From Escherichia phage TH09, in the sequence record MT446387.1: a stretch of 64,000 nucleotides of DNA, one strand, 5' to 3'. Positions 45,421 to 64,000 of the stretch are shown here, one piece after another. Each line of letters starts with the position of its first letter. Positions within the stretch are counted from its first letter, which is position 1. Below the pieces are notes generated by a model. The model was given only the letters and a program-made list of their open reading frames with translations, did not search any database and had not been told where the DNA came from. A program made the position numbers and the translations under genes.

Positions 45421-45933
45421 ATGAAAATTTATCGTGTTGAATCATCGTTTAGCGCATTAAATGATGATAGTGGTATAGTCAAAATTAGGCAAGAGTTATG
45501 CGTTCAATCAACTCCTTATCGTGGATTTGATTCTATGAAAACTCGAACTTGGCTAAAATTTTGTGGTATTAATTCATCGTCATTTCATCATCATAGCGAT
45601 AATTATGAAAGCCATGAAAGTATTCCTATTCCACACGATGATAAGTTATTAGTTGAAAATGCTAATGATGTTATTAAAACTAAATGGAATAAAGATTATT
45701 CACGAATTGAAAATTATATTCCATTGTGGTTTATTGCATTATATCATTTTGCTTTCGCTAGTGAATATGATATGATGAGATGGTTCACTCGAGAAGAGCG
45801 TGAAGACTTAAAAGAACGTGGAATGTACATTGCGATTTATGAAGTGCCAGATGACCAAGTTATCATTGGCGGGCACCAAGTAATGTTCCGTAAATCCCAT
45901 GCCGAATTAAAAGGCTTTATTACCTTAGATTAA
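45421..45933 (+). CDS. hypothetical protein
   Basis: 170 aa from ATG 45421 (GAGGATAATAAA SD). Confidence 0.5.
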   Translation: MKIYRVESSFSALNDDSGIVKIRQELCVQSTPYRGFDSMKTRTWLKFCGINSSSFHHHSDNYESHESIPIPHDDKLLVENANDVIKTKWNKDYSRIENYIPLWFIALYHFAFASEYDMMRWFTREEREDLKERGMYIAIYEVPDDQVIIGGHQVMFRKSHAELKGFITLD

Positions 45934-45943
45934 AGAGAAAATT

Positions 45944-46381
45944 ATGATTAAAAATAATGCTGTTTATCAATTGAAAAAATTTGATGAAATTAAGAATTTT
46001 TCGGTACTGTCTAATACAGCTCATAATAAGTTTTGTGAACTTCTTGGTTTAACTGGCGGATATCCTTTTACTGTTATTAGTGTTAATAGCGGAATTCTTA
46101 TCGGTATGATGTATATTGAAATTAGAAACTATTATGGAATGGTATCACCGCTTATTATTTATGAAAAAGATTTTAGTCTATTGACAGAAATTGAAAAACC
46201 TGAAGATCCAACTGATCTGCTGTGTAAGGCAGTTTATATTCGTCGTCCATTCGCGAATCCTGTGGGTGGATGGGTGACTGATCAGTGGATTGAAGATGGT
46301 GTTGAACTTCTGAACGTAGTTCATGCTGGAGAGTACTCTGTAGTTCCTCGCAGCGCAGTGATTAATGTTCGTGTAAGCTAG
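45944..46381 (+). CDS. MotB-region paralogue 1
   Basis: 145 aa; C-terminal WIEDGVELLNVVHAGEYSVVP shared with next two ORFs. Confidence 0.55.
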   Translation: MIKNNAVYQLKKFDEIKNFSVLSNTAHNKFCELLGLTGGYPFTVISVNSGILIGMMYIEIRNYYGMVSPLIIYEKDFSLLTEIEKPEDPTDLLCKAVYIRRPFANPVGGWVTDQWIEDGVELLNVVHAGEYSVVPRSAVINVRVS

Positions 46382-46415
46382 TTTACAAACTCTTGGGACC
46401 AGAGTATAATGGTCC
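46375..46415 (+). promoter_or_regulatory. T4-type early promoter
   Basis: GTTTACA 46381-46387, TATAAT 46405-46410. Confidence 0.5.
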
Positions 46416-46453
46416 TGCGGAGTATAAATCTTAACAACAAAGAGAGAAAAATT

Positions 46454-46927
46454 ATGATTACTATCGGTGAAATTAAGCGTGTATCGTCTGCATCTCGTTC
46501 TAAAGCTGCAGGTCGTCTAGTTGAAGTGGTAGGACTTCGTACTAATGGTACTGGTCGTGTTAAAGAAGTTAAAGTTCGAATCATTCCTAGTTCTGGAAAA
46601 ACTGAAACTCAGTACGCTTACGTAAGTCCTAAATTTCTGGAAACTCGTGTTAGCTCTCATTTTGCTTCTGTTGAAGAAGTTGAATCCACTGAGTCTAATA
46701 CACAATTTAAATGGGCGTTGTGTAAAGGCGTTGAATTTGTAACTGATGAAGAATTCGATTATATTGATGATTTCGCTGGTCCAAGTAAAACTGATAGGAT
46801 GTGTGGCTTCATCACAGACCAATGGGTTGAAGATGGTAAAAAGCTATACAATATTGTATTTTTAGGTGACTTCCGGGTTGTTGAAGAATCTGAAATCACT
46901 CGTTATGCTTCTCCTCGTAAAGCTTAA
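46454..46927 (+). CDS. MotB-region paralogue 2 (possibly motB)
   Basis: 157 aa from ATG 46454; shared C-terminal motif. Confidence 0.55.
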   Translation: MITIGEIKRVSSASRSKAAGRLVEVVGLRTNGTGRVKEVKVRIIPSSGKTETQYAYVSPKFLETRVSSHFASVEEVESTESNTQFKWALCKGVEFVTDEEFDYIDDFAGPSKTDRMCGFITDQWVEDGKKLYNIVFLGDFRVVEESEITRYASPRKA

Positions 46928-47962: not shown

Positions 47963-48387
47963 TGGCTATTAAATTTGAAGTTAATAAATGGTATCAATTT
48001 AAAAATAAACAAGCTCAAGAAGCTTTTATTAAAGACCATACTGATAACGGAATTTATGCACGACGTTTAGGTATGCATCCTTTTAAAATTTTAGATGTTG
48101 ACCATCTTGGTCGTCCTACTAAAATTATGTCATTTACTGGCACAATTGGATATGCAACACATGGTGATATCCTTGACGAAAACTTTATCTGGCTCTCTAC
48201 TAACGAAGCCGAGTTCTTTGATGAAGTGGAAAATCCATATCAGGCAGCTGAAGAGCAAGAGCAGGAAGAGCAAGAGCAAGAACAAATAGAAGATTTCACA
48301 GAATTCCCAGTCATGAAAGTTACTATTGAAAATAATGAACAGGCATGGTCCTTGTATCAGATGCTGAAAGCTCATTTTAAGGAATAA
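47962..48387 (+). CDS. hypothetical acidic protein
   Basis: 141 aa; [12 protein letters not shown] tract. Confidence 0.5.
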
Positions 48388-49271: not shown

Positions 49272-51092
49272 GTGATGATTAAGAATGAAATTAAAATTCT
49301 GAGCGATATTGAACATATCAAAAAGCGTAGCGGCATGTACATTGGTTCTTCTGCTAATGAAATGCATGAGCGCTTTCTGTTTGGTAAATGGGAAAGTGTT
49401 CAGTATGTACCTGGTCTTGTTAAGCTTATTGATGAAATTATCGATAACTCAGTAGATGAAGGTATTCGTACTAAGTTTAAATTCGCAAATAAAATTAATG
49501 TTACTATTAAAAACAATCAAGTAACAGTTGAAGATAACGGTCGCGGTATTCCACAAGCGATGGTTAAAACACCTACTGGTGAAGAAATTCCTGGTCCAGT
49601 TGCTGCTTGGACTATTCCAAAAGCGGGTGGTAACTTCGGTGATGATAAAGAACGCGTCACCGGTGGTATGAATGGTGTTGGTTCTAGTTTGACAAACATT
49701 TTTTCTGTGATGTTTGTTGGTGAAACTGGCGATGGTCAAAATAATATTGTAGTTCGTTGTTCAAATGGCATGGAAAATAAATCCTGGGAAACTATTCCTG
49801 GAAAATGGAAAGGAACTCGTGTTACTTTCATTCCAGATTTTATGTCATTTGAAACTAATGAGCTGTCCCAAGTTTATCTTGACATTACACTGGATCGTCT
49901 CCAGACACTTGCAGTAGTTTATCCTGATATTCAATTTACCTTTAATGGTAAAAAGGTTCAGGGCAATTTTAAGAAATATGCACGACAGTATGATGAACAT
50001 GCTATTGTTCAAGAACAAGAAAATTGTTCTATTGCGGTTGGTCGTTCACCGGATGGATTTCGCCAATTAACTTATGTGAATAACATTCACACTAAGAATG
50101 GTGGCCATCACATTGACTGTGTTATGGATGATATTTGTGAAGACCTTATTCCACAAATCAAACGTAAGTTCAAAATTGATGTAACTAAAGCACGTGTCAA
50201 AGAATGTTTGACTATCGTTATGTTTGTCCGTGATATGAAAAACATGCGATTTGATTCTCAAACTAAAGAGCGTTTGACTTCTCCATTTGGTGAAATCCGT
50301 AGTCATATTCAACTTGACGCTAAAAAGATTTCACGCGCTATTCTAAATAATGAAGCAATTCTGATGCCAATTATTGAAGCTGCACTAGCTCGTAAATTGG
50401 CAGCAGAAAAAGCAGCTGAAACTAAAGCAGCTAAAAAGGCTTCTAAGGCAAAGGTTCATAAACATATTAAAGCTAATCTGTGCGGTAAAGATGCTGATAC
50501 TACTCTTTTCTTGACTGAGGGTGATTCTGCTATCGGATATCTTATTGATGTTCGTGATAAAGAACTTCATGGTGGTTATCCATTGCGTGGTAAAGTTCTC
50601 AACAGTTGGGGTATGTCATATGCTGATATGCTTAAAAACAAAGAACTATTTGATATTTGCGCAATCACTGGATTAGTTCTTGGTGAAAAAGCTGAAAACT
50701 TGAATTATCATAATATTGCTATTATGACTGATGCTGACCATGATGGTCTAGGAAGCATTTATCCTTCTCTGCTCGGGTTTTTTAGTAATTGGCCAGAATT
50801 GTTTGAGCAAGGACGAATTCGCTTTGTCAAAACTCCTGTAATCATCGCTCAGGTCGGTAAAAAACAAGAATGGTTTTATACAGTCGCTGAATATGAGAGT
50901 GCCAAAGATGCTCTACCTAAACATAGCATCCGTTATATTAAAGGACTTGGCTCTTTGGAAAAATCTGAATATCGTGAAATGATTCAAAATCCAGTATATG
51001 ATGTTGTTAAACTTCCTGAGAACTGGAAAGAGCTTTTTGAAATGCTCATGGGAGATAATGCTGACCTTCGTAAAGAATGGATGAGCCAGTAG
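49272..51092 (+). CDS. 39: topoisomerase II large subunit gp39, intact (not split by gene 60)
   Basis: 606 aa single ORF with GyrB-like ATPase N-terminus and a C-terminus matching what T4 encodes as gp60. Confidence 0.95.
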   Translation: MMIKNEIKILSDIEHIKKRSGMYIGSSANEMHERFLFGKWESVQYVPGLVKLIDEIIDNSVDEGIRTKFKFANKINVTIKNNQVTVEDNGRGIPQAMVKTPTGEEIPGPVAAWTIPKAGGNFGDDKERVTGGMNGVGSSLTNIFSVMFVGETGDGQNNIVVRCSNGMENKSWETIPGKWKGTRVTFIPDFMSFETNELSQVYLDITLDRLQTLAVVYPDIQFTFNGKKVQGNFKKYARQYDEHAIVQEQENCSIAVGRSPDGFRQLTYVNNIHTKNGGHHIDCVMDDICEDLIPQIKRKFKIDVTKARVKECLTIVMFVRDMKNMRFDSQTKERLTSPFGEIRSHIQLDAKKISRAILNNEAILMPIIEAALARKLAAEKAAETKAAKKASKAKVHKHIKANLCGKDADTTLFLTEGDSAIGYLIDVRDKELHGGYPLRGKVLNSWGMSYADMLKNKELFDICAITGLVLGEKAENLNYHNIAIMTDADHDGLGSIYPSLLGFFSNWPELFEQGRIRFVKTPVIIAQVGKKQEWFYTVAEYESAKDALPKHSIRYIKGLGSLEKSEYREMIQNPVYDVVKLPENWKELFEMLMGDNADLRKEWMSQ

Positions 51093-51360: not shown

Positions 51361-53538
51361 ATGATTATCACCACTGAAAAAGAAACAATTCTTGGCAATG
51401 GTTCTAAATCAAAAGCATTTAGCATCGCAGCAAATCCTAAAGTATTTAAAATCTTATCATCTGATTTGTATACAAACAAGATTCGCGCAGTTGTTCGTGA
51501 ATTGATTACCAACATGATTGATGCCCATGCTCTCAATGGAAATCCTGAAAAATTTATCATTCAAGTTCCTGGACGTTTAGATCCACGATTTGTTTGCCGA
51601 GATTTTGGTCCCGGTATGAGTGATTTTGATATTCAGGGTGATGATAATTCTCCCGGTCTGTATAATTCATACTTCAGTTCATCTAAGGCTGAATCTAACG
51701 ATTTCATTGGCGGATTTGGTTTAGGTTCTAAATCTCCGTTTAGTTATACTGATACATTTAGTATTACTTCGTATCATAAAGGTGAAATTCGTGGCTATGT
51801 AGCTTACATGGATGGTGATGGTCCACAGATTAAACCTACATTCGTAAAAGAAATGGGTCCAGATGATAAAACTGGTATTGAAATCGTAGTTCCAGTTGAA
51901 GAAAAAGACTTTAGAAACTTTGCTTATGAAGTTTCTTATATCATGCGACCGTTCAAAGATTTGGCTATCATTAATGGTCTTGACCGCGAAATTGATTATT
52001 TTCCGGATTTTGATGACTATTACGGTGTAAATCCAGAAAGATACTGGCCTGATCGTGGTGGATTATATGCTATCTATGGTGGTATTGTTTATCCTATCGA
52101 TGGTGTTATTAGAGACCGTAACTGGTTAAGCATTCGTAATGAAGTGAATTACATTAAATTTCCAATGGGTTCACTTGATATTGCTCCATCACGTGAAGCT
52201 CTTTCATTGGATGATCGCACTCGTAAAAATATTATTGAACGAGTTAAAGAGCTTAGTGAGAAAGCATTTAATGAAGATGTAAAACGATTTAAAGAATCTA
52301 CATCTCCTCGTCACACATACCGTGAATTGATGAAGATGGGGTATTCTGCTCGAGATTATATGATTAGTAATTCAGTCAAATTCACGACTAAAAATCTGTC
52401 ATATAAGAAAATGCAGAGCATGTTTGAACCTGACATTAAGTTATGCAATGCAGGAGTTGTGTATGAAGTAAATCTTGACCCTCGACTGAAACGCATTAAG
52501 CAAAGCCATGAAACTTCAGCCGTTGCATCAAGTTATCGTCTGTTTGGTATTAATACAACAAAAATTAATATCGTTATTGATAATATTAAAAATCGTGTTA
52601 ATATTGTTCGTGGATTAGCACGTGCGTTAGATGATAGTGAATTTAATAACACTTTGAATATTCATCATAACGAACGCCTTTTGTTTATTAACCCAGAAGT
52701 AGAATCGCAGATTGATTTACTCCCTGATATTATGGCAATGTTTGAAAGTGATGAAGTTAACATTCATTATTTGTCAGAAATTGAAGCTTTAGTTAAAAGC
52801 TATATTCCAAAGGTAGTTAAAAGTAAAGCTCCTCGTCCTAAAGCTGCTACAGCATTTAAATTTGAAATTAAAGATGGACGATGGGAAAAAGAGGAACTAT
52901 TTACACTTACGTCAGAAGCAGATGAAATTACTGGTTATGTAGCGTATATGCATCGTTCTGATATTTTCTCTATGGATGGTACTACATCGCTTTGTCATCC
53001 ATCTATGAATATTTTGATTCGTATGGCTAATCTTATTGGCATTAATGAATTTTATGTTATTCGTCCGCTTTTGCAGAAAAAGGTAAAAGAGCTTGGTCAG
53101 TGCCAATGTATTTTTGAAGCTTTACGTGATTTATATGTAGATGCTTTTGATGATGTAGATTATGATAAGTATGTAGGTTATTCAAGTTCAGCTCAACGAT
53201 ATATTGATAAAATTATCAAGTATCCTGAACTAGATTTTATGATGAAGTACTTCAGTACAGATGAAGTTTCTGAAGAATATACACGACTTGGTAATATGGT
53301 TAGTTCATTACGCGGTGTGTATTTCAATGGTGGAAAAGATACCATCGGTCATGATATCTGGACAGTAACTAATCTCTTTGATGAATTATCACGTAATGCT
53401 TCAAAAAATAGTGATAAAATGGTTGCTGAGTTTACCAAGAAATTCCGTATTGTTTCCGACTTCATCGGTTATCGCAACTCTTTAAGTGATGATGAAGTTT
53501 CCCAAATCGCTAAAACTATGAAGGCCCTTGCGGCCTAA
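51361..53538 (+). CDS. rIIA: rIIA protein
   Basis: 725 aa; recognised as T4 rIIA. Confidence 0.95.
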
Positions 53539-53549
53539 TAAGGAAAATT

Positions 53550-54488
53550 ATGTACAATATTAAATGCCTGACCAAAAACGAACAAGCTGAAATTGTTAAA
53601 TTGTATTCAAGCGGTAATTACACCCAACAGGAATTGGCTGATTGGCAAGGTGTATCGGTTGACACAATTCGTCGTGTTTTGAAAAATGCTGAAGAAGCTA
53701 AACGCTCTAAAGTTACTATTAGCGGTGACATTACGGTTAAAGTTAATAGCGATACAGCTATTGCTCCAGTTACTAAATCTGACATTATTTGGAATGCATC
53801 TAAAAAATTCATTTCAATTACTGTTGACGGTGTAACTTATAACGCAACTCCTAATACTCATTCAAACTTCCAGGAAATTCTTAATCTGCTTGTAGCTGAT
53901 AAGCTGGAAGAAGCAGCACAAAAAATTAACGTTCGTCGCGCTGTTGAAAAATATATTTCCGGCGATGTTCGAATTGAAGGTGGAAGCTTGTTCTATCAAA
54001 ATATTGAATTGCGGTCTGGTTTAGTTGATCGTATTCTCGATTCGATGGAAAAAGGTGAAAACTTTGAATTTTATTTTCCGTTCTTGGAAAATCTGCTGGA
54101 AAACCCAAGCCAGAAAGCGGTATCTCGACTCTTTGATTTCTTGGTAGCAAACGATATTGAAATTACAGAAGATGGTTACTTCTATGCTTGGAAAGTAGTT
54201 CGTGACAACTACTTTGACTGTCACTCAAACACCTTTGATAACAGTCCTGGTAAAGTAGTTAAAATGCCGCGTACTCGTGTGAATGACGATGATACACAAA
54301 CTTGTTCTCGTGGTCTGCATGTGTGTTCTAAATCTTATATTCGTCACTTTGGCAGTTCAACCAGCCGAGTTGTAAAAGTTAAAGTACATCCACGTGATGT
54401 AGTATCAATTCCGATTGATTACAACGATGCTAAAATGCGTACCTGCCAATACGAAGTAGTTGAAGACGTTACTGAACAATTTAAATAA
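53550..54488 (+). CDS. rIIB: rIIB protein
   Basis: 312 aa; recognised as T4 rIIB. Confidence 0.95.
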   Translation: MYNIKCLTKNEQAEIVKLYSSGNYTQQELADWQGVSVDTIRRVLKNAEEAKRSKVTISGDITVKVNSDTAIAPVTKSDIIWNASKKFISITVDGVTYNATPNTHSNFQEILNLLVADKLEEAAQKINVRRAVEKYISGDVRIEGGSLFYQNIELRSGLVDRILDSMEKGENFEFYFPFLENLLENPSQKAVSRLFDFLVANDIEITEDGYFYAWKVVRDNYFDCHSNTFDNSPGKVVKMPRTRVNDDDTQTCSRGLHVCSKSYIRHFGSSTSRVVKVKVHPRDVVSIPIDYNDAKMRTCQYEVVEDVTEQFK

Positions 54489-54503
54489 GGGCTTTGGCCC
54501 TTA
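54487..54503 (+). other. RNA hairpin after rIIB
   Basis: AGGGCTTTGGCCCT; weak T-run. Confidence 0.35.
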
Positions 54504-54516
54504 ACTAAGGAAAATT

Positions 54517-54711
54517 ATGTTAGGTTATCAAGCACGAGTAAAAGAAGAATACGATCAATTAATGCTCAAAATTAATGCACTGAGCAAATTTTTAGAAAGC
54601 ACAAAGTTTCTAACGATTAATGAAGTCGAGCAAGAATTACTGCTTTCGCAGTTTATTTCAATGAAATCTTACGCAGATTGTTTAGAGAAAAGAATTGCAC
54701 AATTCAAATAA
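54517..54711 (+). CDS. hypothetical protein
   Basis: 64 aa. Confidence 0.5.
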   Translation: MLGYQARVKEEYDQLMLKINALSKFLESTKFLTINEVEQELLLSQFISMKSYADCLEKRIAQFK

Positions 54712-54715
54712 AGTA

Positions 54716-54738
54716 AAGGGCTTCGGCCCTTTTGTTTT
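54716..54738 (+). terminator. rho-independent terminator
   Basis: GGGCTTCGGCCC plus TTTTGTTTT. Confidence 0.6.
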
Positions 54739-54775
54739 AAGAGAAATTATGATTCCGACATAAAGGAAAGTTTAA

Positions 54776-55333
54776 ATGCAGAAAACGAATCCGGGTTTAC
54801 AGAGACTATTTCAGATTCCGACATTTACCCTATCGAACAATGACTTGACTAGTGAAATGAAGGTCAAAATTGCTGATACAGCAAGATACTCTTTAAAACA
54901 AAATCCTAATCAGGATAAAGCAGAAGTCATCGAAAGATGCCGTATCGCTGTGTATGCAGAGTTTTTTGTAGCAGATTGGCTGAGCGGGTATGTTAACAAA
55001 GGCCAAGAGGATGTTAATGACCCGTATACATACGCATGGGATGTATTGGCGCATCCAAGATATTGCGGGCTTCGTGTAGAAGTTAAGACACACCAAACTG
55101 ACTCACGTTGGATTTCGGTAACAACTGGATGCAGCGGAGAATATCCATACGGTTCTGGAATAAATCTAGGGCCCATTCTGAATCACCAAGTCGCTGACTG
55201 TATAATTATATTCAACACTAAAGAAATTCATCCAGGTGTCATCCAATACACTCCGAAGTTCATCGGTGATAGAGAAGACCTTCGTAAAGTTGTAAGAAAA
55301 AGCAACTACAACGGATGGTATCTTTCCATTTAA
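54776..55333 (+). CDS. denB: endonuclease IV DenB
   Basis: 185 aa; size and position match T4 denB. Confidence 0.8.
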   Translation: MQKTNPGLQRLFQIPTFTLSNNDLTSEMKVKIADTARYSLKQNPNQDKAEVIERCRIAVYAEFFVADWLSGYVNKGQEDVNDPYTYAWDVLAHPRYCGLRVEVKTHQTDSRWISVTTGCSGEYPYGSGINLGPILNHQVADCIIIFNTKEIHPGVIQYTPKFIGDREDLRKVVRKSNYNGWYLSI

Positions 55334-55334
55334 A

Positions 55335-55388
55335 AATTTTCACAAAACGGTTTACATACCACAAGGACTGTGGTACTATACAACTATC
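55335..55388 (+). promoter_or_regulatory. T4-type early promoter
   Basis: GTTTACA 55350-55356, TGTGGTACTATA -10. Confidence 0.6.
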
Positions 55389-55413
55389 AACTGATACGGA
55401 TTTGGAGAATAAA

Positions 55414-55620
55414 ATGTTTACTACAGCTGAATTAAAACGAGCAAAAGCTAAGAAAGGGCAAGGAAAATATAAAGCTGAATTAGTTAAAGAACTTCAGTTT
55501 GCTGAGGCTGAATTGAATTCAATGATTATTCAAAATGCTCCAGAAACTGAAATTGCTCTTAAGCGTATTGCGAATAAGTGTCTTCGTGATGCAATCGTCG
55601 ATCTTTTAGCGGATTATTGA
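55414..55620 (+). CDS. hypothetical protein
   Basis: 68 aa from ATG 55414 (GGAGAATAAA SD). Confidence 0.5.
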   Translation: MFTTAELKRAKAKKGQGKYKAELVKELQFAEAELNSMIIQNAPETEIALKRIANKCLRDAIVDLLADY

Positions 55621-55625
55621 GTAAA

Positions 55626-55889
55626 ATGAAATTTAAATTTTATTACGCTAAACATAAAATAACTGATGAGTTTGTGTCAGTTGAATATTCTAGCGATGAT
55701 GAAGGTATGATTTATACTCGCTTGGGACTATCGCATTGGGAGTCTGATACGCCTTATTTTTCAACTCCTGAAGAAATTACACGTTTAGTTAATGGTCATA
55801 TGAATGACCACTGGAATGTAATTCTTTCAGATAGTCTTAAAGCGGCTATTAATAGTAATGAAATGAAAATCGCTGAGATTGAACTATGA
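55626..55889 (+). CDS. hypothetical protein
   Basis: 87 aa from ATG 55626. Confidence 0.45.
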   Translation: MKFKFYYAKHKITDEFVSVEYSSDDEGMIYTRLGLSHWESDTPYFSTPEEITRLVNGHMNDHWNVILSDSLKAAINSNEMKIAEIEL

Positions 55890-55972
55890 GTTCATTGTGG
55901 TGGTGTTTTATTTGGTTAATTAGTATTCCATTAATTTGTTTAACATTTACTTTTGTGATGAGGTTATTATGA
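55886..55972 (+). CDS. tiny hydrophobic ORF
   Basis: 28 codons; ATGA overlap. Confidence 0.25.
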   Translation: MSSLWWCFIWLISIPLICLTFTFVMRLL

Positions 55973-56067
55973 AAATTTTGAATTCTGTACTTATTGCTTG
56001 TGCATGGTGGGTTGCGCAAGTTTCAGCGGTAGTAGTTGGTATTCACATTTATTACGAATATTTTTAA
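55969..56067 (+). CDS. tiny hydrophobic ORF
   Basis: 32 codons, single TM-like segment. Confidence 0.3.
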   Translation: MKILNSVLIACAWWVAQVSAVVVGIHIYYEYF

Positions 56068-56112
56068 AAAAGTTGTTTACAAGACTGTTCCTCTGTGGTA
56101 CTATTACCCTAT
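56060..56112 (+). promoter_or_regulatory. T4-type early promoter
   Basis: GTTTACA 56075-56081, TGTGGTACTATTA -10; cassette similar to 2975-3051. Confidence 0.6.
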
Positions 56113-56132
56113 CAACTACGGAGGAACAGAAA

Positions 56133-56246
56133 ATGAAAAAGATTATTAAAGCTATATGGAATGTAGTTATAATACTAATAGTTTTGAGTATATTCCCAAT
56201 CGTTTTAATGATTGATGTATTAAACGCTTACTTTGGATTTATGTGA
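56133..56246 (+). CDS. small membrane protein
   Basis: 37 aa from ATG 56133 (ACGGAGG SD). Confidence 0.4.
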   Translation: MKKIIKAIWNVVIILIVLSIFPIVLMIDVLNAYFGFM

Positions 56247-56253
56247 GGAAAAT

Positions 56254-56451
56254 ATGAAGCGTAAACGCAGTGCTTTTACATTTATTGAATGGTTTTTCGA
56301 TAATATTTTTCCGGCTTTATTCATTTTCATGCTGATTTTCGCCTTGGGTTCAGTTGTAGTTGGAATCTATTTGATGGCAATTGTCGGAATGGACATTCAT
56401 CAAAATGGCTTAAAATCTGTGGTTGAAACAATTTGGAATGGTGTAAAATAA
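56254..56451 (+). CDS. small membrane protein
   Basis: 65 aa from ATG 56254 (GAGGAAAAT SD). Confidence 0.45.
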   Translation: MKRKRSAFTFIEWFFDNIFPALFIFMLIFALGSVVVGIYLMAIVGMDIHQNGLKSVVETIWNGVK

Positions 56452-56558
56452 TGAATTTACTAAGCATTTGGTTTTATATTCTTATGTTTTACATTGGTGC
56501 AAATTTCCCATACTGGATGGGATGGTCAACAACTGCATTCGGATTTTATACTCCTTGA
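56451..56558 (+). CDS. tiny hydrophobic ORF
   Basis: 35 codons; TAATG overlap. Confidence 0.3.
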   Translation: MNLLSIWFYILMFYIGANFPYWMGWSTTAFGFYTP

Positions 56559-56566
56559 GGCGAATT

Positions 56567-56782
56567 ATGAAAAGTTTTAAAGATGTAAAAGTTGGTGAAA
56601 TTTTCTGTTTAGATAACGGTGATCAGTTAATTCGTATTTCACCTCTTAAGAGCACTAGCGAGAAAATGACAGTTAACGCTACTTTAGCAAATAACAGTAA
56701 TGAACGTTTCTGTATTGAAAATGATACTGAAACTTATACTGTAGAAGAGTTTTGGGAATTGAGCGTCGACTGCGACGAGTAA
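56567..56782 (+). CDS. hypothetical protein
   Basis: 71 aa from ATG 56567. Confidence 0.45.
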   Translation: MKSFKDVKVGEIFCLDNGDQLIRISPLKSTSEKMTVNATLANNSNERFCIENDTETYTVEEFWELSVDCDE

Positions 56783-56842
56783 TTTAATGGCCGTGTGTAT
56801 TCATGCGGCCTTGGAGTAGAAAATAATTTAGAGGAAATTAAT

Positions 56843-57298
56843 ATGAAATATATGACTGTTACTGATCTGAACAACGCAGGTGCTACTGTTATTGGTACAA
56901 TCAAGGGTGGTGAATGGGTTTTTGGAACTCCGCATAAAGACATTTTGTCTAACCCTGGATTTTACTTTTTAGTGAGCAAATTTGGCGGTCCATTTGATAA
57001 TCCATGTGTGTCTGCACGATTTTATGTAGGTAATCAGCGTTCTAAGCAAGGATTCAGTGCAGTTCTAAGTCATATTCGTCAACGTCGGTCTCAGCTTGCA
57101 CGTACTATTGCAAATAACAATGTTCCATACACAGTATTTTATCTGCCTGCTTCTAAGATGAAACCTCTGACGACAGGATTTGGTAAAGGTCAGTTAGCTT
57201 TGGCGTTTACTCGTAATCATCATTCTGAGTATCAAACACTTGAAGAAATGAACCGTATGTTGGCTGATAATTTTAAATTTGTTTTGCAGGCATATTAA
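56843..57298 (+). CDS. ndd: nucleoid disruption protein Ndd
   Basis: 151 aa from ATG 56843 ([11 protein letters not shown]...); recognised as T4 Ndd. Confidence 0.9.
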
Positions 57299-57378
57299 TG
57301 AGCAATTTCCATAACGAACATGTGATGCAGTTCTATCGTAACAATCTTAAAACTAAAGGCGTCTTCGGACGCCAGTGA
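57298..57378 (+). CDS. stp: Stp peptide (activator of host PrrC anticodon nuclease)
   Basis: 26-codon [29 protein letters not shown], recognised as T4 Stp; TAATG overlap with ndd. Confidence 0.85.
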
Positions 57379-57385
57379 GGAAAAT

Positions 57386-57544
57386 ATGAATATCGCAAAA
57401 TTATTAGGAGTTATTTCATTTATTTGTTGGATAGTAGCATGTGTTTTAACTATTTGTATCGATGCTAGCAGTGTGTTTTCACAAGCTTTAGCCCAGGGTA
57501 TGTGTGCATATTTAACATTTGTGTTGTTATCTACTAATGATTAA
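57386..57544 (+). CDS. small membrane protein (possibly ac)
   Basis: 52 aa hydrophobic; GAGGAAAAT SD. Confidence 0.4.
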   Translation: MNIAKLLGVISFICWIVACVLTICIDASSVFSQALAQGMCAYLTFVLLSTND

Positions 57545-57677
57545 GAAAATCTTGGGCTATTCATTAGCCCTTGCTACTTTATTGGTAGCACTATATTATG
57601 GAGTAATGTTCGGATTAATTCAAGTCGTGCTTTTCATTTCTGATGTTATTATGGCACTACATTCACTAGTATGGTAA
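57537..57677 (+). CDS. small membrane protein
   Basis: 46-codon hydrophobic ORF. Confidence 0.3.
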   Translation: MIKKILGYSLALATLLVALYYGVMFGLIQVVLFISDVIMALHSLVW

Positions 57678-57681
57678 ATTT

Positions 57682-59370
57682 ATGCAACTGAATAATCGCG
57701 ATTTAAAAAGTATCATTGATAATGAAGCATTGGCTTATGCTATGTACACGGTTGAAAATCGTGCTATTCCAAATATGATTGATGGATTTAAGCCAGTTCA
57801 ACGATTTGTTATTGCTCGAGCTCTTGATTTGGCACGAGGAAATAAAGATAAGTTTCACAAACTCGCTTCTATCGCAGGTGGTGTAGCGGACCTTGGATAT
57901 CATCATGGCGAAAACTCTGCACAAGACGCAGGTGCTTTGATGGCTAACACTTGGAATAATAACTTTCCTCTGTTAGATGGTCAAGGAAACTTCGGTTCTC
58001 GTACCGTTCAAAAAGCAGCGGCAAGTCGTTATATTTTTGCTCGTGTAAGTAAAAATTTCTATAACGTATATAAAGATACTGAGTATGCTCCGGTACATCA
58101 AGATAAAGAACACATTCCGCCTGCTTTCTATTTGCCTATTATTCCTACTGTTCTTCTTAATGGCGTTTCCGGTATTGCAACTGGTTATGCAACTTACATT
58201 CTTCCTCATAGCGTTTCTTCTGTCAAGAAAGCTGTATTACAAGCTCTTCAAGGAAAGAAAGTAACTAAACCGAAGGTAGAATTCCCAGAATTTCGTGGTG
58301 AAGTCGTTGAAATTGATGGGCAATATGAAATTCGTGGAACATATAAGTTTACTTCACGAACTCAAATGCATATCACTGAGATTCCGTATAAGTATGATCG
58401 TGAAACTTATGTGAGTAAAATCTTAGACCCACTTGAAGATAAAGGCTTCATTATACATCAAGATAAAGAACACATTCCGCCTGCCTTCTATTTGCCTATT
58501 ATTCCTACTGTTCTTCTTAATGGCGTTTCCGGTATTGCAACTGGTTATGCAACTTACATTCTTCCTCATAGCGTTTCTTCTGTCAAGAAAGCTGTATTAC
58601 AAGCTCTTCAAGGAAAGAAAGTAACTAAACCGAAGGTAGAATTCCCAGAATTTCGTGGTGAAGTCGTTGAAATTGATGGGCAATATGAAATTCGTGGAAC
58701 ATATAAGTTTACTTCACGAACTCAAATGCATATCACTGAGATTCCGTATAAGTATGATCGTGAAACTTATGTGAGTAAAATCTTAGACCCACTTGAAGAT
58801 AAAGGCTTCATTACATGGGATGATGCTTGTGGTGAGCACGGCTTCGGCTTTAAAGTTAAATTCCGTAAAGAATATTCTTTGAGCGATAATGAAGAAGAAC
58901 GCCATGCAAAAATTATGAAAGACTTCGGGTTGATTGAGCGTCGTTCTCAGAATATTACCGTCATTAATGAGAAAGGAAAACTACAAGTTTACGATAACGT
59001 AGTTGATTTAATTAAAGACTTCGTTGAAGTTCGTAAAACTTATGTCCAAAAGCGAATTGATAACAAAATCAAAGAAACTGAATCAGCATTTCGTTTAGCC
59101 TTTGCCAAGGCACATTTCATTAAGAAAGTGATTTCAGGTGAAATTGTTGTACAAGGTAAAACTCGCAAAGAACTGACTGAAGAACTTTCTAAAATTGATA
59201 TGTATTCTTCTTATGTTGATAAACTAGTTGGAATGAACATTTTTCATATGACTTCCGACGAAGCAAAGAAACTTGCTGAAGAAGCTAAAGCTAAAAAAGA
59301 AGAAAACGAATATTGGAAAACTACTGATGTAGTTACAGAATACACTAAAGATTTAGAGGAAATCAAATGA
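57682..59370 (+). CDS. 52: topoisomerase II medium subunit gp52 carrying an internal 120-aa tandem duplication
   Basis: 562 aa versus about 442 aa expected; residues HQDKEH...EDKGFI occur twice. Confidence 0.9.
   Translation: MQLNNRDLKSIIDNEALAYAMYTVENRAIPNMIDGFKPVQRFVIARALDLARGNKDKFHKLASIAGGVADLGYHHGENSAQDAGALMANTWNNNFPLLDGQGNFGSRTVQKAAASRYIFARVSKNFYNVYKDTEYAPVHQDKEHIPPAFYLPIIPTVLLNGVSGIATGYATYILPHSVSSVKKAVLQALQGKKVTKPKVEFPEFRGEVVEIDGQYEIRGTYKFTSRTQMHITEIPYKYDRETYVSKILDPLEDKGFIIHQDKEHIPPAFYLPIIPTVLLNGVSGIATGYATYILPHSVSSVKKAVLQALQGKKVTKPKVEFPEFRGEVVEIDGQYEIRGTYKFTSRTQMHITEIPYKYDRETYVSKILDPLEDKGFITWDDACGEHGFGFKVKFRKEYSLSDNEEERHAKIMKDFGLIERRSQNITVINEKGKLQVYDNVVDLIKDFVEVRKTYVQKRIDNKIKETESAFRLAFAKAHFIKKVISGEIVVQGKTRKELTEELSKIDMYSSYVDKLVGMNIFHMTSDEAKKLAEEAKAKKEENEYWKTTDVVTEYTKDLEEIK
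58094..58453 (+). repeat. 360-bp tandem repeat unit 1 inside gene 52
   Basis: 359/360 identical to unit 2. Confidence 0.95.
58454..58813 (+). repeat. 360-bp tandem repeat unit 2 inside gene 52
   Basis: Single difference 58485 C versus 58125 T, synonymous. Confidence 0.95.
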
Positions 59371-59516
59371 GTCCATTCATAGGTATTACAAGCGCGGCAT
59401 TAGTATCTGGTAGCATTTTACTAGCGGGTTTAGGTGTTGTTCCAGCTGTAGCAGGAGGTCTTCTTGCGTTCGGCATTCAACGTGTTATCATGACAGTTAT
59501 CACAGTCATGCAGTAA
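59367..59516 (+). CDS. small membrane protein
   Basis: 49-codon hydrophobic ORF; ATGA overlap with gene 52 stop. Confidence 0.4.
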   Translation: MSPFIGITSAALVSGSILLAGLGVVPAVAGGLLAFGIQRVIMTVITVMQ

Positions 59517-59520
59517 TTTT

Positions 59521-59548
59521 AGGGAGAGCCAAGGCTCTCCCTTTTTAT
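59521..59548 (+). terminator. rho-independent terminator
   Basis: GGGAGAGCC-aa-GGCTCTCCC plus TTTTT. Confidence 0.65.
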
Positions 59549-59554
59549 TTTAAA

Positions 59555-59608
59555 ATTTTTTTCACAAAACGGTTTACAACCAAAGCATACTGTGGTACTA
59601 TACAACTA
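59555..59608 (+). promoter_or_regulatory. T4-type early promoter
   Basis: GTTTACA 59572-59578, TGTGGTACTATA -10. Confidence 0.6.
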
Positions 59609-59642
59609 TCAACTGCTGATACAGAATTACGGAGATTAGAAA

Positions 59643-60278
59643 ATGTCTAAAGTAACTTACATCATCAAAGCTTCTAACGATGTTCTGAATGAAAAAACTG
59701 CTGCGATTTTAATTACCATTGCTAAGAAAGATTTCATTACAGCTGCAGAAGTTCGTGAGGTGCATCCAGATTTAGGTAACGCAGTAGTTAATAGTAATAT
59801 TGGTGTATTGATTAAAAAGGGCCTGGTAGAGAAATCTGGTGATGGATTAATCATTACTGGTGAAGCTCAGGATATTATTTCAAACGCAGCAACTTTATAC
59901 GCACAGGAAAATGCTCCGGAACTGCTGAAAAAACGAGCAACTCGTAAATCTCGTGAGATTACTTCTGATATGGAAGAAGATAAAGACTTCATGTTAAAAC
60001 TTTTAGATGAAAATGGATTTGTTCTTAAAAAGGTTGAAACTTATCGCAGTAACTATCTCGCTATTTTAGAAAAACGCACTCACGGAATTCGTAATTTTGA
60101 AATTAACAACAATGGAAATATGCGAATTTTTGGATACAAAATGATGGAACATCATATTCAGAAATTTACTGACATCGGTATGTCATGCAAAATCGCTAAA
60201 AATGGTAATGTGTATCTTGACATTAAACGCTCGGCAGAAAACATTGAAGCTGTAATCACCGTAGCATCTGAACTGTGA
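59643..60278 (+). CDS. motA: middle-transcription activator MotA
   Basis: 211 aa; recognised as T4 MotA. Confidence 0.95.
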   Translation: MSKVTYIIKASNDVLNEKTAAILITIAKKDFITAAEVREVHPDLGNAVVNSNIGVLIKKGLVEKSGDGLIITGEAQDIISNAATLYAQENAPELLKKRATRKSREITSDMEEDKDFMLKLLDENGFVLKKVETYRSNYLAILEKRTHGIRNFEINNNGNMRIFGYKMMEHHIQKFTDIGMSCKIAKNGNVYLDIKRSAENIEAVITVASEL

Positions 60279-60288
60279 GGAATAAATA

Positions 60289-60618
60289 ATGAACAAGTTA
60301 GAAATTATTAATGAACTTCGTCGCTGTGCAGAACCCACTCAAGAGGGGTGGGATATCTGGTACCACGGAGCTTATCTTGGAACTATTGTAAAGATTAAGA
60401 CTGGTAAATATATGATTATTCGTGAAAGTAAAGATGCTCCAGTAGGTATTCGCAATAATTTCATGGCAGCTATAAGTTCCTTTACGGATTCAGCTTACGA
60501 AATTTACCTTGCTGATTATAAAGAATTCCAGGAATCTCAACCAGTTATTCGCTCAATTGGTGTTAACAAAGCTCAACAGAAAACTTTGTGGCAACGTATT
60601 AAAGGATGGTTTAAATGA
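60289..60618 (+). CDS. hypothetical protein
   Basis: 109 aa. Confidence 0.5.
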
Positions 60619-61076
60619 ATCCATTTATTAATCGTTTAAAAATGCTGAATGTTCCTTTATATCGTGAGACTCCAGAAAGTCTTGTTGAAAAATTTAAAGC
60701 ACACGGTTATAAATGCACAGAAGAAGATATTCTTGCAGAAGTTCCGGAAATCTGTTGGCAGTCTGCATACTGGGATGAAAACCAAAAGTACCAACGACGG
60801 ATTGTTTGCGCAGCCAACCGTTTTAAATTAAAAGATGGACGAATTCTTGTTATTCCGGGTGCTCGTCATTATTCTAAAGATATGGCAGCAGTTTTAGATG
60901 TAGTTAAACCTCAATTAGTTACTCAACAAGTTTGTGATGATGACCAAGGGTTTATTGACCAATATAGTAATTATTGGACACGTGAAGAAGCAATGATTAT
61001 TGCAACTTACGCTGGACAAGTACGTATTGAACGCGGTGGTAGTGAAAAAGAACTTTACTCTGAGGACCTTTACTAA
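60615..61076 (+). CDS. hypothetical protein
   Basis: 153 aa. Confidence 0.5.
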
Positions 61077-61372
61077 TGAATATTAAAAAGTTTCAAATTG
61101 ATGGAATTATGAATCAAATCCAGGCATTGGAATATGCCAATAAAATGATGTCAACCAAATGGGGAATTTATGCCAATGAACCGGCATTTCAGTTCTGTAA
61201 TATGGAATTCACTAAAAAGCTCGTAGGAAAAGATTATGTATGTCCATTTAGTTCCCCAATAAATGGAATGCTAAAGCCTGCTTTACGCGATCTTTATATT
61301 GCGATGAACGAAGAGATGATAAAAGAACTAAAACGTCAACTGAAGGTGATTCAATTTGGCCAGGGAAATTAA
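61076..61372 (+). CDS. hypothetical protein
   Basis: 98 aa. Confidence 0.5.
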   Translation: MNIKKFQIDGIMNQIQALEYANKMMSTKWGIYANEPAFQFCNMEFTKKLVGKDYVCPFSSPINGMLKPALRDLYIAMNEEMIKELKRQLKVIQFGQGN

Positions 61373-61574
61373 TTCAAAATCTGATTATTTTAATTCTCTC
61401 AATGATAAAGATAAAAATCTAATACGGCATTTTATTGTTGAGATGGGATATACCGATACACGTGATTTAAGAGAACATATATTTGAATGTGGTGTAGCTA
61501 AAAAGTTTTCATTCACATGCAAATGTTTGAGAGAGGTAATTCAGCACTATGAACAATTTAGTCGCAAAACATAA
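61356..61574 (+). CDS. hypothetical protein
   Basis: 72 aa. Confidence 0.4.
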   Translation: MAREINSKSDYFNSLNDKDKNLIRHFIVEMGYTDTRDLREHIFECGVAKKFSFTCKCLREVIQHYEQFSRKT

Positions 61575-61657
61575 TTTTAATAAAGCTTCTGTTCATAAGG
61601 ATAAGAAGAAAGCGTTTAAAGAATCTAATCGCAAACAGAAACATAAGGGGAAGGTCT

Positions 61658-61936
61658 ATGATTATTGATTCTCAGTCCGTGGTTCAATACACAATCAAAA
61701 TTGATATTCTAGAAAAGCTATATAAGTTTCTACCAAATTTATACCATTCAATTGTCAATGAATTAGTTGAAGAACTGCATCTTGAGAATAATGATTTCTT
61801 GATTGGAACTTATAAAGACCTCTCAAAAGCAGGATATTTTTACGTAATTCCAGCTCCAGGAAAAAGTATCGATGATGTATTAAAAACTATAATGATTTAT
61901 GTCCATGATTATGAAATTGAAGATTATTTCGAATGA
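61658..61936 (+). CDS. arn: putative Arn (anti-restriction, McrBC inhibitor)
   Basis: 92 aa acidic protein; size and position match T4 arn. Confidence 0.5.
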   Translation: MIIDSQSVVQYTIKIDILEKLYKFLPNLYHSIVNELVEELHLENNDFLIGTYKDLSKAGYFYVIPAPGKSIDDVLKTIMIYVHDYEIEDYFE

Positions 61937-62085
61937 GTCATAATCTTGAAAAAGTAATCGAGCATAATGTAGCTCAGGAACGTGAGTCGTTCAAAGAATT
62001 CGTAGAAAAAATTTTTGAAGAAAATAATACAGACCAGTTTACAAATCAAACGTCTGATGATATTATAACAAAGTCAACTAATTGA
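61933..62085 (+). CDS. small hypothetical protein
   Basis: 50-codon acidic ORF. Confidence 0.3.
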   Translation: MSHNLEKVIEHNVAQERESFKEFVEKIFEENNTDQFTNQTSDDIITKSTN

Positions 62086-62097
62086 GTGGTATAGTTA

Positions 62098-62370
62098 ATG
62101 AATAAAAACATTGATACAGTTCGTGAAATTATTACTGTTGCGTCTATTTTGATTAAATTTTCCAGAGAAGATATTGTTGAAAATCGTGCTAATTTTATTG
62201 CATTTCTGAATGAGATTGGAGTAACGCATGAAGGTAGAAAGTTAAATCAAAATTCATTCCGTAAAATTGTTTCTGAATTAACCCAAGAAGATAAGAAAAC
62301 CCTCATCGACGAATTCAACGAGGGTTTTGAGGGTGTATATCGATATCTAGAGATGTATACGAACAAATAA
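62098..62370 (+). CDS. asiA: anti-sigma70 factor AsiA
   Basis: 90 aa; recognised as T4 AsiA. Confidence 0.95.
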   Translation: MNKNIDTVREIITVASILIKFSREDIVENRANFIAFLNEIGVTHEGRKLNQNSFRKIVSELTQEDKKTLIDEFNEGFEGVYRYLEMYTNK

Positions 62371-63027
62371 TTATTTAGCCCTTCCTAATATTCTGGCCGC
62401 CTGAGCACATATTGATTCAAGGCGGTCATTACTTATATGATCATTTCTATACCAGTACATGGTTATCGTTCCAGCATAGATATTATCCAAATTAAAATAT
62501 GGACAACTGTACATGTAGTTTATTTCGGGAGTAGGCTTTTTAGTTGGTAAAAAAGCAAATTTTGAGTCAGAATAATAATGACGTCCATTTAAATGAACTG
62601 TATATTCATCCATAGTTTTATCAACAGGATATCCTCCAAGTGATTTTTCAGTTATTGTTGAAGGTAATCTTCCTTCGTATGCTATAATATCAACAAAATA
62701 GTTTAAGTTTTTAGGGCGGAAAGAATACACCGCACTAAAGTCTGCCTCAGATGATATATGAACTATCTGGAGTTGTTCCAGGGCGACAGATTCAAAGCGT
62801 GCATTTCTTTCCTTTTCAATAATTTCACTGTATGTTTCATACTTTGATTGCTTATAGTACTCAAAGAAACTATCTCCCCTATACCAAACAATCGCCATCA
62901 TAAATAAAAGAATTACGACAGCTACCCGGGAAGCAAGAACTTTCCCGGTAGCGTTATCTTTGAACAAGCGATCTAGAACACCAAATAGAATATCAGAGGG
63001 CGAAAATGATATTCTAGGTGCTGCCAT
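62371..63027 (-). CDS. t: holin T
   Basis: 218 aa; recognised as T4 holin; stop abuts the asiA stop. Confidence 0.95.
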   Translation of the reverse strand: MAAPRISFSPSDILFGVLDRLFKDNATGKVLASRVAVVILLFMMAIVWYRGDSFFEYYKQSKYETYSEIIEKERNARFESVALEQLQIVHISSEADFSAVYSFRPKNLNYFVDIIAYEGRLPSTITEKSLGGYPVDKTMDEYTVHLNGRHYYSDSKFAFLPTKKPTPEINYMYSCPYFNLDNIYAGTITMYWYRNDHISNDRLESICAQAARILGRAK

Positions 63028-63044
63028 AGACCCTCCTTTTAAGA

Positions 63045-63052
63045 TATTTATA
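63045..63052 (-). promoter_or_regulatory. late promoter for t
   Basis: TATAAATA on the - strand overlapping the gene 38 stop, followed by GGAGG and the t start. Confidence 0.5.
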
Positions 63053-63599
63053 CGTAATGCTTGAATAAACGCTTATACCAAGGCTTCTGTTCTTTTTCAG
63101 GCCATTTAGGAAATTCACCACCTAAATGCTCATGCTTTTCTAAAAGAGCAAAGAACCGCTTAAGGTTTTTATAATAGAATTTTTCCTTTTTATTCGCGAC
63201 AGAAGCTTCAATCATATTATTTAAAACTTGGAATTCTTTGTATAATTCTTCAATTTTTCTATTGCGAATTAAAACGCGTTTATATGTTTCGTCTTCTTTC
63301 CAACCATCATCAGTCCATATATCAAATTCGCCGGGTTCATCAAAAGTTATACCAACCGGGCTTCCTATGTCAGTTATTAAGATTTCTTCTTTATTAAAAG
63401 TCCAAGCCCGTTTACCGCGATGGTCTTCTTCATAAATCCAATCCTGAATACGTTCATCAAATACAACTGCGTATCCTTCTTTAGGTTCTAAAGGTTTTTT
63501 AATTGTTGAATGAGCAGGAAGACCGAGACCTTTAACAGGTTTGTAATTTTCTTCTTTGTAAAATTCTTTAGTGTCAAAATAATAATGATAGATTTTCAT
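63048..63599 (-). CDS. 38: gp38, T4-type 183-aa tail fibre assembly protein
   Basis: 183 aa; recognised as T4 gp38. Confidence 0.9.
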   Translation of the reverse strand: MKIYHYYFDTKEFYKEENYKPVKGLGLPAHSTIKKPLEPKEGYAVVFDERIQDWIYEEDHRGKRAWTFNKEEILITDIGSPVGITFDEPGEFDIWTDDGWKEDETYKRVLIRNRKIEELYKEFQVLNNMIEASVANKKEKFYYKNLKRFFALLEKHEHLGGEFPKWPEKEQKPWYKRLFKHYV

Positions 63600-63630
63600 A
63601 TTTAGAAGGGGCCGAAGCCCCTCTCCTTAT
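63600..63630 (-). promoter_or_regulatory. gene 38 split ribosome-binding site hairpin
   Basis: On the - strand AAGGAGAG, then GGGGC-UUCG-GCCCC hairpin, then the ATG; matches the known T4 gene 38 split SD. Confidence 0.5.
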
Positions 63631-64000
63631 GCTAAACGAACAATATAGTTAAAAGCAATGTTTTTAACCGTGTTTTCTGTATTACCTGTACTATTTACAG
63701 TGATAGTATGACCATGCGAGCCAATTGCTACCGTGTGGGTATGAGCACCGATACCTACAGTATGGGTATGAGCACCAATACCAACAGTATGCGCGTGAGC
63801 GCCTGCGCTTGCAGCAGTACCAGATATAGAGTGCGAATGTGCCCCAGAAGAAGAAGTTCCAAGCGTATTACCACCACCGGCGGATCCTCTTATAGAACCA
63901 GTACCAGGAGAGTTGTTACTTCCCGCATAAAGAGCGCTTGTGTGGCTGTGCGCACCGGCGGTGTTTGTGGAACCGCTCAAACTATGCGTATGAGCACCAG
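63627..64000 (-). CDS. 37: long tail fibre distal subunit gp37, C-terminal part (continues beyond window)
   Basis: C-terminus ...[11 protein letters not shown] with His-rich [16 protein letters not shown] repeats; ORF open to the window end. Confidence 0.9.

Follow-up and report, generated by a model that had tools for sequence, protein, structure and literature searches.

The 64,000-nt stretch of Escherichia phage TH09 analysed here (sequence record MT446387.1; hereafter the window) carries, within gene 52 coding for the medium subunit of the phage topoisomerase II, a head-to-tail repeat of 360 bp that lengthens the predicted product from 442 to 562 aa. While the repeat is present in the sequence as given, it is most probably not a real biological feature. 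With a probability that we put at about 0.6, its second copy stems from assembly, finishing or data handling and lies outside the heritable genome of the phage, an untrimmed contig overlap or concatenation being the likeliest source. The sequence-only reading of this DNA had named an assembly artefact among several explanations; on the sequence evidence gathered below, this is the one that we favour.

The repeat and its distribution among relatives

Analysis of the window with TRF revealed a single strong array, at 58094-58813, with a period of 360, 2.0 copies, 99% matches, 0 indels and a score of 1433. Base-by-base comparison of the two head-to-tail copies (Table 1) found 359 of the 360 bases to be the same, the sole difference, T at 58125 versus C at 58485, being synonymous (GCT/GCC, Ala). 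Identity at period 360 ends abruptly at 58093/58094 and at 58813/58814, and a repeat of this size far exceeds chance expectation. The duplicated block opens with the second base of codon 138, and residues 138-257 are repeated exactly apart from the junction codon ATA (Ile), which differs both from the ancestral GTA (Val138) and from the ACA of Thr258 (single-copy numbering). With one copy deleted, the open reading frame (ORF) aligns colinearly and gap-free with gene 52 of relatives (1329 nt, 442 aa). The sequence-only reading had described two such copies with one T/C difference, in frame and repeating 120 residues just past the AASRY motif, with sharp boundaries devoid of flanking microhomology and surrounded by genes of normal length. 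All of this was borne out by TRF, the base comparison, the translation, the single-copy relatives and the ORF comparison given below; the block begins 21 residues beyond the catalytic Tyr117.

The window derives from a T4-like Tequatrovirus, the best GenBank relatives of which are 97-99% identical to it across tens of kb, none being identical. Gene 52 matches were retrieved from 738 GenBank phage records and all those among the matches listed span 1329 nt, the single-copy length. A 120-nt junction probe was also used, with a ranking that would list an unbroken match first; the top-ranked of 495 records match it only as two pieces located at opposite ends of one unit. The junction sequence was not found in IMG/VR, JGI metagenome contigs, 100,044 GTDB species genomes or complete E. 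coli assemblies. At the protein level, lengths in the best 120 of 2,204 significant homolog clusters range from 433 to 465 aa, and neither the exact 562-aa gp52 nor the rIIA protein of the window has a database record. Contigs encoding exactly the MotA or Ndd protein of the window provided loci with a complete gene 52, 19 out of 19 of which encode 442 aa. Based on these searches, the 360-bp repeat is private to this sequence. The comparison with related isolates that the sequence-only reading had proposed as a check therefore gave single-copy gene 52 throughout. A lineage feature common to relatives was rejected, as neither repeat nor junction occurs in GenBank phages, homolog clusters, IMG/VR, JGI, GTDB or E. 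coli.

The closest segment found is Logan contig SRR11575121_41, an independent assembly that runs unbroken through gene 52, including the unit boundaries. Its gene 52 is 100% identical to that of the window once copy 2 is removed, and bears one copy and the T allele. Over window positions 53832-64000, a single base (61053) differs besides the repeat and the C allele, corresponding to a flank divergence of 1 in 9449 nt. The repeat is thus absent from an independent assembly of nearly the same DNA. Since this near-identical contig is single-copy, the second copy arose after an extremely recent common ancestor of the segment, which strongly supports the word 'recent' in the sequence-only reading. 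The contig is a mosaic close relative rather than the same isolate, because 79 sites differ in rIIA/rIIB. The boundary of this mosaic is sharp, the 79 differences lying at 51387-53831 and being followed by only one (61053) across 9.8 kb; this pattern indicates, from the aligned sequences, that closely related T4-like phages recently exchanged DNA by recombination.

The single base distinguishing the two copies is equally private. A 41-mer holding the T allele in its 58125 context is found exactly in 392 phage records, T being the ancestral state. The C allele of copy 2 was found in no GenBank phage and in no IMG/VR contig (a T-allele control gave 5 hits), and the C base is unseen in about 450 relatives. 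One mismatch per 720 bp in the repeat is ~13 times the flank rate of 1 per 9449 nt. The C lies 32 nt beyond the junction, a proximity expected in ~9% of cases for a randomly placed base; errors concentrated next to a join would look like this, although a single event is suggestive only. Two co-assembled strains as the source of the two copies were rejected, because the copies share every strain-specific base and the differing C occurs in no relative.

Reconstruction of the single-copy ancestor gives CTCCGG/TACATC as the left breakpoint and TTCATTA/CATGGG as the right one. Microhomology is 0 nt on both sides, which is the commonest (modal) outcome for arbitrary breakpoints (52%). Near-identical copies with arbitrary, homology-free boundaries, as seen here, are expected of overlap artefacts. 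The repeat shares with T4-type tandem duplications its head-to-tail arrangement, evident from TRF and from the 359/360 identity, but lacks their 2-10 bp of boundary homology. In a T4 evolution study, every amplification or deletion boundary fell at a microhomology of 6-10 bp, and the older T4 studies cited therein, on rII and gene 16-18, gave 2-10 bp (bioRxiv 10.1101/2022.04.14.488369). No inverted repeat was found at either breakpoint, and a hairpin- or palindrome-driven template switch was rejected on this ground.

Table 1. Features of gene 52 and of its internal repeat (window positions)
Feature	Position	Strand	Basis or remark
Gene 52 ORF, topoisomerase II medium subunit, GyrA/ParC-like breakage-reunion subunit	57682..59370	+	ORF list, PF00521, PDB likeness, synteny
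Catalytic Tyr117 codon, motif AASRY	58030..58032	+	Upstream of the repeat, unduplicated; translation and PMC11461880
Copy 1 of the 360-bp unit, residues 138-257	58094..58453	+	Ancestral T at 58125
Copy 2 of the 360-bp unit, residues 258-377	58454..58813	+	Private C at 58485, 32 nt past the junction
Junction codon ATA (Ile258), breakpoint 58453/58454	58453..58455	+	New codon
Junction-spanning 28-mer			AAAGGCTTCATTATACATCAAGATAAAG, for the tandem junction in gene 52

The searches also brought up whole T4-like genomes, as contigs of 165-167 kb, within whole-genome shotgun (WGS) drafts at NCBI (AASXSC010000007.1, AATAVQ010000003.1, ABTUHW010000001.1 and ABOAXX010000006.1), all with a 442-aa gene 52. 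Such draft-assembly records are a useful further source of Tequatrovirus diversity.

Gene 52 product and its predicted structure

The identity of gene 52 is supported by its domain content, its structural homologs and its gene neighbourhood (ndd - ac - 52.1 - 52 - motA.1 - motA). The 562-aa product matches PF00521 with 329 bits (gathering score 31), versus 260 bits for a 442-aa relative (P0001). This match falls into two separate stretches, the best one placing residues 27-254 on profile positions 1-245. As it stands, the product is not one continuous WHD-Tower-coiled-coil protein of about 440 aa, but it becomes one after removal of one copy, and is then ~99% identical over all 442 residues to T4/T6 gp52 (PDB 8ylu, 8yo3). 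Judged by sequence, the product minus one copy is an ordinary member of the gp52/GyrA/ParC family. The AASRY motif with Tyr117, the catalytic tyrosine of T4/T6 gp52 (PMC11461880), occurs once in the 562-aa product, and R116 and Y117 are invariant in an alignment of 36 sequences. In the T4/T6 enzymes the Wing-2 hairpin of the Tower puts an isoleucine into DNA, while Q214, R300, R301, S302 and N304 touch the DNA backbone (PMC11461880). The duplicated block includes the Wing-2 hairpin and Q214 and excludes R300-N304.

To locate the block in the fold, the 562-aa product was modelled with AlphaFold2 from the 36-sequence alignment (mean pLDDT 78.9, pTM 0.69). Copy 2 (residues 258-377) is modelled mostly at pLDDT of at least 90, with the Wing-2 hairpin, a helix, a four-stranded sheet and a helix packed on the remaining Tower. 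In copy 1, pLDDT is ~25 at residues 140-173 and 50-67 at residues 178-253, and the Wing-2 hairpin is unformed. MAFFT placed all homologs on copy 2, which biases the model on the question of the native copy and limits its use as an arbiter. What the model does robustly predict is that at most one copy can take the native position, the other being extruded as a non-autonomous fragment of ~120 residues beside the DNA gate. The unit consists of the WHD-Tower linker and roughly the first two-thirds of the Tower. Its left edge lies in the linker and its right edge inside the Tower, between helix 240-253 and the following strand (single-copy numbering). Duplication of a whole structural domain was consequently rejected, both edges being off the domain limits. 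The sequence-only reading had suggested a tolerated domain expansion and had proposed a structure prediction of the 562-aa protein as a check. The prediction confidently folds only one copy, and the suggestion was not supported, as the unit is not a domain, the extra copy is of low confidence in the model and no relative has the repeat.

The same reading had called the enzyme essential. This is not accurate: T4 has no absolute requirement for its topoisomerase II, mutants growing with a DNA-delay phenotype in reliance on host gyrase (PMC4396842; see also PMC3016281). Because the enzyme is conditionally dispensable, viability of the phage is no proof that the 562-aa protein works, and a phage could be viable with its gene 52 damaged. 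A literature search for gene 52 mutants in defence or drug escape returned nothing relevant, PMC13250531 having matched only through a journal citation, 'Gene 52'.

Origin of the second copy

We infer the following route to the favoured artefact. Being circularly permuted, a T4-type genome would be assembled as a 'circle', that is, a linear contig with two overlapping ends, and neighbouring contigs may overlap likewise. Joining such ends with the overlap left untrimmed, followed by rotation of the sequence or by reading across the join, would create an internal head-to-tail repeat with arbitrary homology-free boundaries and base errors near the join. The true gene 52 would then be the ordinary one of 1329 nt and 442 aa, restored by deleting 58454-58813, the C at 58485 would be a low-coverage error at a contig end, and the divisibility of 360 bp by three would be a one-in-three coincidence. 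The very active homologous recombination of T4 should, in addition, rapidly collapse a 360-bp direct repeat, and this repeat interrupts the Tower of a protein with ~99% conservation throughout the genus. Artificial contig-end overlaps and the re-orientation of circularly permuted genomes are documented as routine in phage assembly (PMC5923482).

Several points weigh against an artefact. The repeat is internal rather than terminal, so that an artefact would require a further step of rotation, concatenation or wrap-around. The length of 360 bp is unlike the usual de Bruijn k-mer overlap (127 bp for SPAdes, PMC5923482) and it keeps the reading frame. The surrounding sequence is also of good quality. 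When phage JLBYU22 was reconstructed in the orientation of the window and 245 pairs of stop-to-stop ORFs were compared between the two, gene 52 was the only real gene with altered length (446 vs 566 codons stop to stop), other flagged pairs being antisense ORFs or differences upstream of start codons. A generally poor assembly was therefore rejected, no other gene being split or resized, and the absence of frameshifts in the rest of the window speaks for an otherwise careful assembly. A real two-copy array with one single-nucleotide polymorphism near the unit start can, moreover, be assembled from short reads. Finally, topoisomerase-mediated illegitimate recombination provides T4 with a homology-independent route, and the missing microhomology is for this reason still compatible with a real event.

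The main rival is a genuine duplication, spontaneous and very recent, either fixed through the bottleneck of plaque purification or carried by a large subpopulation; we regard this as possible, at roughly half the weight of an artefact. A homology-independent illegitimate event would be its source, for instance template switching or an exchange mediated by topoisomerase, and its product would be ordered WHD, extra partial Tower, native Tower and coiled coil. According to the model, one copy would complete the native fold and the other would form a poorly folded loop of ~120 residues near the DNA gate. Topoisomerase activity would probably be reduced or lost, and the phage would survive by virtue of a dispensable gene 52, with DNA delay, through host gyrase and recombination-dependent replication. 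An in-frame repeat within an otherwise error-free 64-kb sequence fits such an event, as do the near-identical single-copy contig SRR11575121_41, expected if the event is very young, and the placement of the polymorphism near the unit start, by which short reads could resolve a real array. One copy being integrated at pLDDT of at least 90, with the other at ~25-67, makes a folded core conceivable. Tandem duplications and amplifications are, besides, a documented class of T4 mutation, but the T4 events, as far as they are described in the same source, have 2-10 bp of microhomology where gene 52 has 0 (bioRxiv 10.1101/2022.04.14.488369). A genuine duplication further needs an extra private substitution within 720 bp when the flanks have only 1 in 9449 nt, and needs it to have fallen by chance (~9%) within 32 nt of the junction. 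The repeat is also absent from every other sequence examined. A direct repeat of 360 bp is expected to be lost fast and, were it harmful, single-copy revertants should prevail. If real, the repeat would be a private, young mutation of a known kind, at most very recent.

A selected, functional expansion of gp52 is very improbable. It would provide the enzyme with two Wing-2/Tower half-modules and alter DNA bending or drug sensitivity, or allow escape from a host defence that senses gp52. The preserved reading frame is in its favour, and the block does hold the DNA-contacting Wing-2 hairpin with its intercalating Ile, as well as Q214 (PMC11461880). The unit is, however, not an autonomous domain and its extra copy is modelled as largely disordered, no such lengthening occurs in the best 120 of the 2,204 homolog clusters, and the 99.99%-identical relative is single-copy, giving no sign of retention at the lineage level. 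In one variant, a 358-bp duplication at TACAT would have been followed by a +2 'TA' slippage at the junction that restored the frame. A TACAT pentamer is indeed present at both boundaries, displaced by 2 nt, and the junction CATTA-TA-CAT is as expected from a TACAT-mediated 358-bp duplication with a TA insertion. Recombination at TACAT by itself would give a frame-shifting repeat of 358 bp and not 360 bp, and the match lacks significance, a nearby 5-mer match of this kind being shown by 30% of random position pairs in the window; an origin from this microhomology was rejected on both counts. The two-step rescue was judged far less likely than simple recombinational collapse, a frame-restoring +2 insertion being far rarer. 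Adaptive domain expansion is therefore unlikely, and hardly any weight is left for a repeat that is both real and kept as useful, its duplicated Wing-2/half-Tower module by the DNA gate altering bending or cleavage, sensitivity to intercalators or poisons, or defence evasion. Such a repeat would be the first case in nature of a partial-domain expansion within the catalytic core of type IIA topoisomerases.

If the second copy is an artefact, as we favour, the finding has curation value: 58454-58813 should be removed, gene 52 annotated as a normal 442-aa protein and the 562-aa 'variant' kept from protein databases and alignments. If it is real, the DNA gate of the phage's own topoisomerase would contain a partial-domain repeat of 120 residues, and the phage would be viable on account of the conditional dispensability of the enzyme. 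The repeat would then allow measuring the rate at which T4-type recombination loses a 360-bp direct repeat, along with the tolerance of the type IIA fold. Neither outcome raises a new biological question.

Surroundings of gene 52 and comparison with known systems

Directly 5' of gene 52 are two overlapping hydrophobic ORFs of 52 aa on the plus strand, one ac-like (57386-57544) and one 52.1-like (57519-57677). The ac-like ORF holds an imperfect 31-bp x 1.9 tandem repeat (TRF array 57421-57479). Two other small imperfect tandem arrays were detected, at 48250-48282 (15 bp x 2.2; GAAGAGCAAGAGCAA) and, near the window end, at 63721-63800 (27 bp x 2.6, 84% matches). The segment 45452-47360 is either ~91% identical (over 45614-46512) or unalignable to JLBYU22, which is otherwise 98.7% identical to the window, and presumably represents a hyperplastic region in which small ORFs were replaced. 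The large subunit of topoisomerase II is encoded on the plus strand at 49272-51092 by one ORF of 606 aa, gene 39 in its unsplit T2/T6 form, in a region with neither a separate gene 60 nor a T4-like translational-bypass segment. Downstream of gene 39 are rIIA.1, rIIA (51361-53538) and rIIB (53550-54488).

The split of T4 gene 39/60, as opposed to the unsplit gene 39 of T2/T6 found here, resembles the gene 52 repeat in that the enzyme tolerates some gene rearrangement. However, the 39/60 variation is lineage-wide, conserved and located at a TOPRIM domain insertion (PMC11461880), whereas the repeat belongs to a single sequence and cuts the Tower. With T4/T6 gp52 (8ylu, 8yo3 and others; Nat Commun 2024, PMC11461880), the product of the window shares the R116-Y117 pair, the WHD-Tower-coiled-coil order and the gene neighbourhood, and differs from it by 120 extra residues, with 138-257 repeated, Ile for Val at the junction and a split PF00521 match. 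The tandem amplifications of T4 (dmd-tifA) are likewise head-to-tail, very young and private to one clone, but they are of kb scale, include whole genes, were selected and are bounded by microhomology, one copy of which is left at the junction (bioRxiv 10.1101/2022.04.14.488369). The gene 52 repeat, in contrast, is of 360 bp, intragenic, with 0 bp of microhomology and no known selection. The terminal contig overlaps of Philipson et al. 2018 (PMC5923482) usually lie at both ends of a record and often equal the assembler k (e.g., 127 bp), unlike the gene 52 copies, which measure 360 bp and adjoin each other within the window. They nevertheless share with these copies near identity, homology-free boundaries, a mismatch by the join and absence from independent assemblies.

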